From: Candidatus Uhrbacteria bacterium RIFOXYB12_FULL_58_10
GTDB taxonomy: Bacteria > Patescibacteriota > Patescibacteriia > UBA9934 > GWF2-40-263
Direction: 5' to 3'
NCBI GenBank assembly: GCA_943359455.1
Contig: CALRHL010000004.1
Span: 1-54,916, forward strand
Length of the DNA stretch: 54,916 nucleotides
A program made the position numbers and the translations under genes. The notes below the pieces were generated by a model. That model was not told where the DNA came from. It saw only the letters and a list, made by a program, of their open reading frames with translations, and did not search any database. Of this stretch, positions 18,447 to 19,305 are shown one piece after another. Position 1 is the stretch's first letter, and each line of letters begins with the position of its first letter.

Positions 18447-18476
18447 CAAAAGCAAAACCGCCTAAGAAAAGGCGGT
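18447..18476 (-). terminator. intrinsic terminator closing candidate ncRNA A
   Basis: minus strand accgcct-tttctt-aggcggt followed by tttgctttt. Confidence 0.75.
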
Positions 18477-19270
18477 CAAGCGATTTTTGGAGCGTACTCC
18501 GGACGAATCTCTTTTGAAACACATGTCGATCAGGATGGGGATTTAAGCCGTTGTTTCGGCTCCCCACCACAAATCGTCAGCAACGGCGCGTACCGTTGGC
18601 AGGTTGCCCTGCGATGTTTCAACGTTGATTTGCCTGCCTTGCGGCTACCCTCACGGCACGTCGCGTACCGTAACGAGGGACAATTTTCGGTTCCTATGCA
18701 TTCGCGCAGCACAGGGAGACATTGATTAAGCTCTCGTCGACAATGGCATGGCCACGTCGTGCGTCGGCCTAGAGCCGGCGCTGAGATACCTTAATCTGTC
18801 TTTTCACCGAAGGCTTGTTGAGCCTTGTGTGTCTTTTCAAACACACTCACCTCGCCGAAGTTATTTAGGGCAACCGACGAGGGCCCTCGATCCTTACGGA
18901 CCGGGTTTTGGGCGCGTCACACATCTTGTCCAGATCTCATTTCGAATGAATTTTTACAGTTAGATCGAGAAGCGGAATTGCTCTCGAAATCTCTGCGATC
19001 CACCCTCAGGTGAATCCGCTCCGAGCCATTTGCGCTCGAAACGGATAGCACAGGACCACTCCTCGTACTATCATCATTCAAAACGGTCTGGCACAAGCCC
19101 TGTTACTCTCCGCTAATCTCAGGCGGAAACAGTAACAGTTTTTGTGTACGCGTTTACCCAAGGGGCGAGGCTGGTGCCTCTCCGTAGCCCCTTCTGCCAT
19201 TTCTGGCAGTATTCTCAATTGGTTCGGGAGTGAGAACAACCCGGAAATCCACACACCTAATTGCATGTGG
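18450..19270 (-). ncRNA. candidate large structured ncRNA A (~800 nt)
   Basis: No credible ORF; promoter at 19277-19305 and terminator at 18447-18476 on the same strand; many GNRA-capped hairpins on the minus strand. Confidence 0.7.
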
Positions 19271-19276
19271 AAAAAT

Positions 19277-19305
19277 ATGTTAACACGATAATGAACTTTT
19301 GTCAA
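19277..19305 (-). promoter_or_regulatory. sigma70 promoter of ncRNA A
   Basis: minus strand TTGACA-17 nt-TAACAT with TG extension. Confidence 0.75.

Follow-up and report, generated by a model that had tools for sequence, protein, structure and literature searches.

A Large Structured RNA Encoded Beside a MoxR–vWA Gene Pair in a Patescibacterial Genome

The window analyzed here, a stretch of 54,916 nucleotides (nt), is the entire contig C4 (CALRHL010000004.1) of Candidatus Uhrbacteria bacterium RIFOXYB12_FULL_58_10, and the relatives of its proteins are labelled Patescibacteria. Its minus strand carries RNA-1, a structured non-coding RNA (ncRNA) of about 824 nt situated directly in front of the genes for a AAA+ ATPase of the MoxR type and for a protein combining an HExxH (zincin) domain with a von Willebrand factor A (vWA) domain. 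RNA-1 very probably represents a new and very rare family within the large ornate bacterial ncRNAs, with a promising genetic link to this MoxR–vWA pair. Three genomes recur below, namely the source genome of the window (G000; 1.07 Mb, 97.7% complete), a genome of the same genus that is the second carrier of the RNA-1 3′ part and the ATPase gene (G001), and the closest relative of the source genome, used for comparing the island that holds these genes (G002). The literature, searched in full text with supplementary files outside its scope, offered neither a description of such an RNA nor a link between MoxR–vWA systems and a large ncRNA in Patescibacteria. The RNA-1 unit comprises the following elements:

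19277..19305, minus strand: RNA-1 promoter, TTGACA, 17 nt, TGnTAACAT; 10/12 matches, TG present
18447..19270, minus strand: RNA-1, a structured non-coding transcript of ~824 nt, its 5′ end placed from the −10 box and its 3′ end from the terminator U-run
19249..19270, minus strand: 5′-terminal 8-bp hairpin CCACAUGC/GUGUGUGG, pair probability 0.98
18910..19159, minus strand: predicted domain 1, with long-range closing helices, a 12-bp helix and a multi-way junction (p 0.84–1.00); single-sequence prediction
18636..18884, minus strand: predicted domain 2, with less certain closing helices (p 0.34–0.58) and inner hairpins at p >0.9
18506..18682, minus strand: 3′ domain kept in G001, in which UUGAAACAU/GUGUUUCAA closes a three-way junction; it also contains the GCC-GCAA-GGC hairpin and a hairpin at 18652–18672
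18489..18500, minus strand: GGAG-UACG-CUCC hairpin, with an identical stem and the loop UAAG in G001
18447..18477, minus strand: RNA-1 intrinsic terminator, pair probability 0.99; also in G001

The RNA-1 unit and its predicted fold

A sequence-only reading of this DNA had proposed a stand-alone, highly structured minus-strand ncRNA of about 800 nt, bracketed by a TTGACA-17-TGnTAACAT promoter and an intrinsic terminator. Both signals are present: the promoter runs from 19305 to 19277 and the terminator stem from 18477 to 18456 (8 pairs, 5 of them G-C, with a loop of 6, then a T-rich tail). Given that the promoter is of the extended −10 type and close to consensus and that the intrinsic terminator is strong, RNA-1 has the makings of an independent promoter-to-terminator unit, the transcription of which we infer from these signals. 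Promoter-like sites in 18000–19800 (2 vs 1.9 ± 1.4 in shuffles) and terminator-like sites around RNA-1 are no commoner than in shuffled sequence; the two are therefore informative by their position and not by their frequency. The region was also said to lack a credible open reading frame (ORF), and this agrees with what we find: the longest frames within RNA-1 reach 59–60 aa (minus strand) and 71 aa (plus strand), another of 110 aa crosses the promoter, one of 85 aa overlaps the next gene, and 0/3 of the frames tested from this region match Pfam. The G+C content of RNA-1 is 52% vs a background of 44–47%. Being non-coding, longer than 500 nt and equipped with transcription signals of its own, RNA-1 would belong with the large structured (“ornate”) bacterial ncRNAs.

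The predicted minimum free energy (MFE) of the transcript, taken as 826 nt, is −364.9 kcal/mol as compared to −272.2 ± 7.1 kcal/mol for 20 dinucleotide shuffles, of which 0/20 fold as low (z −13.1); together with the promoter-terminator arrangement and the 3′ structure kept in G001, this bears out the proposal of a stand-alone structured RNA. In a minus-strand scan of 243 sliding windows of 200 nt over the first 24.3 kb, 8/10 of those starting at 18301–19201 rank among the 17 lowest. The central 500 nt of RNA-1 fold more strongly on the minus strand (z −7.7, −42.1 kcal/mol per 100 nt) than on the plus strand (z −4.6, −34.2 kcal/mol per 100 nt), and the same 500-nt-piece method gives z −4.2 for the RNase P RNA and z −1.2 for the transfer-messenger RNA (tmRNA) of the same genome; RNA-1 matches GOLLD in size and is more stable per nucleotide than the resident RNase P RNA. 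Every hairpin and stem listed in the sequence-only reading is present where it had been placed, and hairpins with a GNRA or UNCG tetraloop on a stem of at least 4 bp number 6 in RNA-1 vs 1.10 ± 1.19 in 542 windows of equal length from both strands, the maximum among these being likewise 6, reached by 2/542 windows that may overlap RNA-1 itself. Most helices of the MFE structure have pair probabilities >0.9, and the fold of the 5′ two-thirds is a model prediction.

The proposal of a long-range pseudoknot between a hairpin loop CUGAGAU (19122–19116) and AUCUCAG (18787–18781) fares less well. The 7-nt complementarity exists as described, but the pseudoknot itself is unsupported: the UCUC of the second site is predicted to pair locally (probability of being unpaired 0.01–0.14), the homologue in G001 covers neither arm, and by our own estimate (N^2/2/4^7) some 20 complementary 7-mer pairs arise by chance in 824 nt, so that this one is not above chance.

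A homologue in a second genome

When searched with BLASTN, RNA-1 found only the source genome itself among 41 relatives, and among 401 class genomes it matched 4 at E<=0.01, the three foreign matches being of 22–31 nt at E 0.005–0.007 and taken as chance. Lacking a real match by this route, we sought a homologue via the downstream ATPase gene. The AAA+ gene of G001 (46% identity) opens a contig with 295 nt upstream of it, and these nucleotides align with the 3′ end of RNA-1, the homologue (L007:1–239) covering the last ~235 nt up to the point where the contig ends. An nhmmer search of 140 G001 contigs (826,593 bases) with RNA-1 recovered this segment as the sole match, a weak one (E 6e-4, 15.6 bits). 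A covariance model made from the window sequence alone, with the MFE structure predicted for it, matched it at full length with 63.7 bits (E 3e-18) in 624,737 bases, with the runner-up at 15.4 bits (E 0.011). The 5′ part of RNA-1 is not assembled or not detectable in the 151 contigs of G001, three of which were covered in part (C11, 20,000/30,303 bases; C86, 20,000/20,042; C148, 4,500/11,691). Weak matches in C4, C41, C77 and C151 of that genome were considered as candidates for it and rejected, as on alignment they proved to be coding sequence or chance. A covariance model of the two sequences (R1) matched 2/150 relatives, and these two were the sequences on which it had been trained. Viral contigs contained no match to the conserved RNA motif and no relative of the ATPase when queried with a Walker-A-free sub-alignment, and a phage collection gave no match in blastn with RNA-1 or in tblastn with the ATPase.

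The two 3′ parts are identical at 120/230 aligned positions (52%), and the alignment gaps of 4, 2, 1, 3 and 4 nt are incompatible with a coding frame. Folded separately, both adopt the same architecture: a stem-hairpin and a small hairpin come first, then a long helix closing a three-way junction in which two short hairpins and a long, bulged one meet, and finally the GGAG/CUCC hairpin and the terminator. When the MFE structure of the window sequence alone is laid on a plain MAFFT alignment, 15/78 pairs are changed on both sides and still paired, as compared to 7.6 ± 2.0 in shuffles (0/500 of which reach 15) and 2–5 with slid partners; an alignment fitted to the model, which leans towards that model, yields 21/78 compensatory pairs vs 1–4 slid. 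The sequence-only reading had called for a test of covariation in homologues; compensatory changes are seen in the last ~235 nt with one homologue, whose reach ends before the 5′ part. The base composition points the same way: the two carriers have almost the same G+C content in the 3′ part (G000, 53.4%; G001, 53.8%), whereas their neighboring AAA+ and vWA genes stand at 44–45% vs 63% and thereby track their own genomes, which despite belonging to one genus have 47.0% vs 62.3% G+C overall. Judged by composition, such constancy would be the behavior of a structural RNA and not of a neutral spacer.

These comparisons bear on two doubts about the nature of RNA-1. It might be a non-functional stretch, a decayed gene or spacer with a fortuitous fold and promoter- and terminator-like sites; single-sequence folding may indeed mislead, the promoter-like sites are no commoner than in shuffles as noted above, and the sequencing runs containing the locus are 3 DNA runs from 1 study (lake-water metagenomes) with no RNA run listed. 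The contigs of those DNA runs are identical to the window, so that no variants are visible at the locus. Against a lack of function stand the compensatory changes and the covariance-model score of the G001 copy, the conserved terminator, a G+C content kept at 53–54% against a background of 44% vs 63%, indels that do not come in threes and internal ORFs of which 0/3 tested match Pfam, and we accordingly disfavor this explanation, giving it very little credence. Alternatively, RNA-1 could be a highly divergent RNase P RNA, tmRNA, group I/II intron, GOLLD, ROOL, OLE or HEARO, seeing that divergent RNAs are frequent in bacteria of the candidate phyla radiation (CPR) and that its size falls within the GOLLD range. 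However, the 4227 families of Rfam gave 0 matches at the gathering cut-off in all 54,916 bases of the window, and at E<=10 the segment 18300–19500 returned only the small nucleolar RNA snoZ163 on the opposite strand (16.9 bits, gathering score 39), which is a chance match. Moreover, the genome has its RNase P RNA (RF00010) elsewhere, at C21:1883–2314 with 137.9 bits, and therefore RNA-1 is not that RNA; the tmRNA is likewise located elsewhere, at C10:20428–20827. RNA-1 is not a housekeeping RNA, and a divergent member of a known family strikes us as highly improbable. The sequence-only reading, which had seen no RNase P signature, assigned no family and suggested the Rfam scan with cmscan, was right on this point. 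RNA-1 is very probably a real, selected structured RNA and the founder of a family outside Rfam.

The MoxR–vWA pair and possible roles of RNA-1

The two genes behind RNA-1 code for the following proteins:

15146..18382, minus strand: 1078-aa AAA+ ATPase, in which an AAA_5/MoxR-CobS-like core lies between a coiled-coil region at the N-terminus and, at the C-terminus, a GXGXG beta-helix resembling FwdC/GltS
12609..15143, minus strand: 844-aa zincin–vWA protein, whose HExxH (WHEFGHG) domain at the N-terminus is joined by a (GEGK)n linker to a vWA domain at the C-terminus that contains the metal-ion-dependent adhesion site (MIDAS) motif DHSGS

The ATPase belongs to the AAA_5/MoxR-chelatase clade, matching PF07728 (AAA_5) at E 3.3e-11 with 43.8 bits (cut-off 22), and its core, with the Walker A motif GPPGTGKT, matches the phage CobS-like family phrog_249 at E 3e-14. 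Its AlphaFold model (predicted local distance difference test score, pLDDT, 70; predicted template modeling score, pTM, 0.37) shows, besides the AAA+ core, a coiled coil, a region of helices and a beta-helix. The family comprises 8 clusters including the ATPase itself, among the 8000 candidates that shared words with it and were scored from a total of 5.8 billion protein clusters; one of the other homologues is 67% identical. Its carriers, counting G000, amount to 2/73 genomes of the taxonomic family, 2/162 of the order, 1/401 in the class sample and 1/401 in the phylum sample. A pattern search with Walker-A peptides from the AAA+ alignment hit 50 genome-contig and 11 metagenome-contig loci, all of them generic AAA proteins. 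Within the 1.07-Mb source genome as a whole, 13 AAA_5 (MoxR-type) matches occur at ~11 loci.

In the adjacent vWA protein, the HExxH motif and the MIDAS DxSxS motif (DHSGS) are invariant in 6/6 aligned homologues. Pfam VWA models do not match it at E 0.001 and a TROVE domain was not detected in it; a feature search links it to VWA/CobT_C clusters at scores of 0.96–0.97, many of them from phages. The low-complexity linker swamped a quicker homologue search, and in an exhaustive one 42 matches had E<=0.001 and 6 had E<=1e-10, the rest aligning to the linker (residues ~390–515). PADLOC returned weak matches at the level of the Walker A motif only (IetA, E 1e-4). Elsewhere in the source genome, a 1171-aa ORF (C2:45493–49008) adjoins a 656-aa ORF with HExxH and DxSxS motifs.

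Both carriers have the same order: RNA-1, its terminator, ~60–75 nt, the AAA+ gene and the vWA gene. In the source genome the terminator ends ~65 nt before the AAA+ ATG, with a similar distance in G001, and 3′ of the terminator a −10-like box can be read by eye in either genome (TATACT in G000, TGGTAGAAT in G001). RNA-1 is hence directly upstream of, and co-oriented with, the ATPase/vWA genes in 2/2 carriers, the proteins of which have diverged to 46% identity.

Large and elaborately folded RNAs are, to our knowledge, very few in bacteria—OLE, GOLLD, ROOL, raiA and HEARO—and each of them opened new RNA structural biology, with most still lacking a function. Both GOLLD and ROOL are associated with phages and prophages. 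OLE is known only from Bacillota, has a conserved consensus of ~600 nt and is regarded as working within a ribonucleoprotein whose protein members (Oap) are encoded in its vicinity, its partners being membrane proteins; RNA-1, in contrast, does not match the OLE model of Rfam, and the proteins considered as its partners are a zincin–vWA protein and an AAA_5 ATPase. Like GOLLD and ROOL, RNA-1 falls in the 600–800-nt class, is free of ORFs, multi-domain and rich in stable hairpins, is rare, resides on accessory DNA and lacks an assigned function. Unlike them, it matches neither of their Rfam models, has no adjacent tRNA and no recognizable prophage around it, and is tightly linked to a MoxR–vWA gene pair; the conserved pair directly behind it thus supplies a genetic hook that GOLLD and ROOL do not offer. 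GOLLD and ROOL, large ornate ncRNAs of bacteria and phages, have been studied by cryo-EM (10.1101/2024.12.08.627333/PMC12286853).

On the protein side, a study of jumbo phages describes MoxR–vWA pairs in which the vWA partner has an N-terminal metallopeptidase domain (Iyer et al. 2021, PMC7824862). The island proteins, an AAA_5 ATPase and a protein of the form HExxH-linker-vWA(MIDAS), resemble these pairs, which, as described, have no associated RNA and a proposed role in virion assembly (PMC7824862). They differ in that the island ATPase bears long coiled coils and a GXGXG beta-helix tail and that the island genes lie on the chromosome of a CPR-like bacterium and have two large RNA candidates beside them. 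In MoxR–vWA ternary conflict systems the obligatory third component is a protein, which may be VMAP, iSTAND, a beta-propeller or FtsH (Kaur, Burroughs, Iyer, Aravind 2020, PMC7159879), and that paper has 0 occurrences of “ncRNA” or “noncoding RNA”. The island pair with RNA-1 is comparable to these systems in having a MoxR–vWA core plus a putative third component with a patchy presence on accessory DNA. A precedent for a vWA/MIDAS protein in complex with an adjacently encoded structured ncRNA is offered by Ro60 (TROVE plus vWA/MIDAS) and Y RNA (PMC4201824 and 10.1101/312249). In contrast to Ro60, the island protein has no detected TROVE domain and no RtcB or PNPase context. Y RNAs are of the order of ~100 nt.

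MoxR–vWA machines are understood as protein remodellers. Our best reading, about as likely as not, is that RNA-1 is functionally tied to the pair. We tentatively posit, with clearly less confidence, that it is a trans-acting third component of the MoxR–vWA machine, either as a scaffold or as a client RNA: a complex of RNA-1 with the zincin–vWA protein might be assembled or remodelled by the ATPase ring, and the RNA would take the place that a protein (VMAP, CobN/BchH or a virion part) holds in known MoxR–vWA systems. In its strictest form, which is possible though doubtful, RNA-1, perhaps with a second RNA candidate of the island (RNA-2), would be an obligatory third subunit gripped by the zincin–vWA protein and remodelled by the AAA+ ring; any contact of RNA-1 with these proteins is one that we infer.

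Several observations weigh against these proposals. No RNA-binding domain was recognized in either protein with Pfam, PHROGs, NCBIfam, PADLOC or the AlphaFold model of the ATPase. A terminator followed by a −10-like box means that RNA-1 and the genes may be expressed independently, and the shared neighborhood in both genomes might simply reflect joint transfer on a single island. The comparative support comes from a single homologue of the last ~235 of ~824 nt, the 5′ ~590 nt having none; domains 1 and 2 are predicted by single-sequence folding, which is by itself no proof of function. The compensatory changes were counted between 2 sequences, too few for covariation statistics of the R-scape type, and the structure tested derives from one of the two, which favors it over its slid versions.

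Two other roles for RNA-1 have to be considered next to a trans-acting one. It could be a very long cis leader of the AAA+/vWA operon, with the terminator as a gate and signal-dependent read-through, as its place immediately 5′ of the AAA+ start codon on the same strand, retained in 2/2 carriers, would permit. However, the terminator pairs with a probability of 0.99, its 5′ arm has no upstream complement (the 6-mer needed matches only the terminator’s own 3′ arm), and the antiterminator pairing competing with the terminator that marks an attenuator or riboswitch is not found; the −10-like box beyond the terminator in both genomes suggests that the genes have a promoter of their own, the cis-regulatory families of Rfam do not match, and we know of no attenuator or riboswitch that needs 800 nt. 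A leader function therefore appears unlikely. Alternatively, RNA-1 and RNA-2 could be independent ornate RNAs of a mobile element, e.g., self-assembling ones, that merely share the island. The size, the 6 tetraloop hairpins vs 1.1 expected, the multi-domain fold, the rarity and the island location of RNA-1 would all fit, as would the largely phage-derived neighbors of the vWA partner in feature space and the match of the AAA+ core to phage phrog_249; GOLLD and ROOL are reported to form RNA-only assemblies (10.1101/2024.12.08.627333). This too we consider rather improbable: the exact position before the AAA+ gene is kept despite 46% protein identity and a 15-point shift in G+C, which exceeds what co-transfer needs, the island has no phage structural or integrase genes and no tRNA nearby, and the phage and viral collections gave no match. 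Between acting in cis and in trans, we favor the trans-acting model, which fits the strong promoter and terminator, the −10-like box in both genomes and the absence of antiterminator pairing.

If an RNA client or subunit of this kind were confirmed, it would broaden the presumed role of MoxR–vWA machines, make the island the first described RNA-containing MoxR–vWA system and open a way of testing why CPR bacteria, with their reduced genomes, devote so much of a 1-Mb genome to such RNAs. Its direct reach is small because the family is very rare (2 genomes; ~8 related ATPases among 5.8 billion clusters).

The accessory island and further folding gaps

The genes and RNAs discussed above, together with an orphan ORF, make up an accessory island:

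12547..20310, no strand: accessory island of 7.7 kb between the PP2C and trxB genes, which are 276 nt apart in G002
19401..19607, plus strand: orphan ORF of 68 aa, divergent from RNA-1; it has a Shine-Dalgarno site, and a terminator of its own lies at 19606–19627
19642..20312, plus strand: RNA-2 candidate of ~636 nt, with the promoter TTGACA-17-TGgTATATT (19642–19670) and a strong terminator hairpin (20267–20302) followed by a T-run

The order on the island is the 844-aa vWA gene, the ATPase gene, RNA-1, the orphan 68-aa ORF and RNA-2. In the closest relative of the source genome, the flanking PP2C (221/233 residues identical, 95%) and trxB (89% identical) genes are present and the island with RNA-1 is absent. 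At the island junctions no integrase, tRNA or clear direct repeats were seen, and neither phage structural or integrase genes on the island nor a tRNA near RNA-1 were found. The orphan ORF is the only member of its cluster among the 5.8 billion, and its Atlas model has a small beta-rich fold with a template modeling (TM) score of ~0.5–0.6 to DUF2442/GBBH-N-like clusters.

The RNA-2 candidate has a folding z of −5.7 and no ORF, and neither an Rfam match nor a homologue was found for it. RNA-1 and RNA-2 share no similarity, and neither has a paralogue in the source genome. Inside the 5′ part of RNA-2, the strong Shine-Dalgarno sequence AAGGAGG (19725–19731) precedes a GTG-started mini-ORF of 7 codons (19737–19760), which could be a leader peptide or chance. 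A perfect complementarity of 12 nt between RNA-1 (18553–18564, minus strand) and RNA-2 (~20076–20087, plus strand; E 0.07) was rejected as a real interaction and taken as chance because the RNA-1 side is not conserved in G001.

Other ORF-free gaps of the source genome match or exceed RNA-1 in folding strength. An informal look with a crude caller that counts ORFs of at least 90 aa did not establish that gaps of this kind are statistically associated with AAA_5 genes. The ORF-free gaps C10:15059–15717 (z −10.1), C2:52261–52976 (z −7.7) and C2:65312–66000 (z −7.5), each scored with 20 shuffles, are joined by C2:55858–56402 (z −6.7, 8 shuffles), which lies 85 nt before an AAA_5 gene; two of these four are within 3.5 kb of AAA_5 genes. 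In the minus-strand sliding scan of the window, low values are also reached at 1–200 (z −6.8) and at 11601–11900 (z −6.3/−5.1), the latter lying between the genes for glutamate dehydrogenase and PP2C. Finally, the segment C3:28660–34908 has five ORF-free gaps of 385–776 nt with a G+C content of ~0.5 within 6 kb, and the four that were scanned have z-values down to −6.4 (minus strand).

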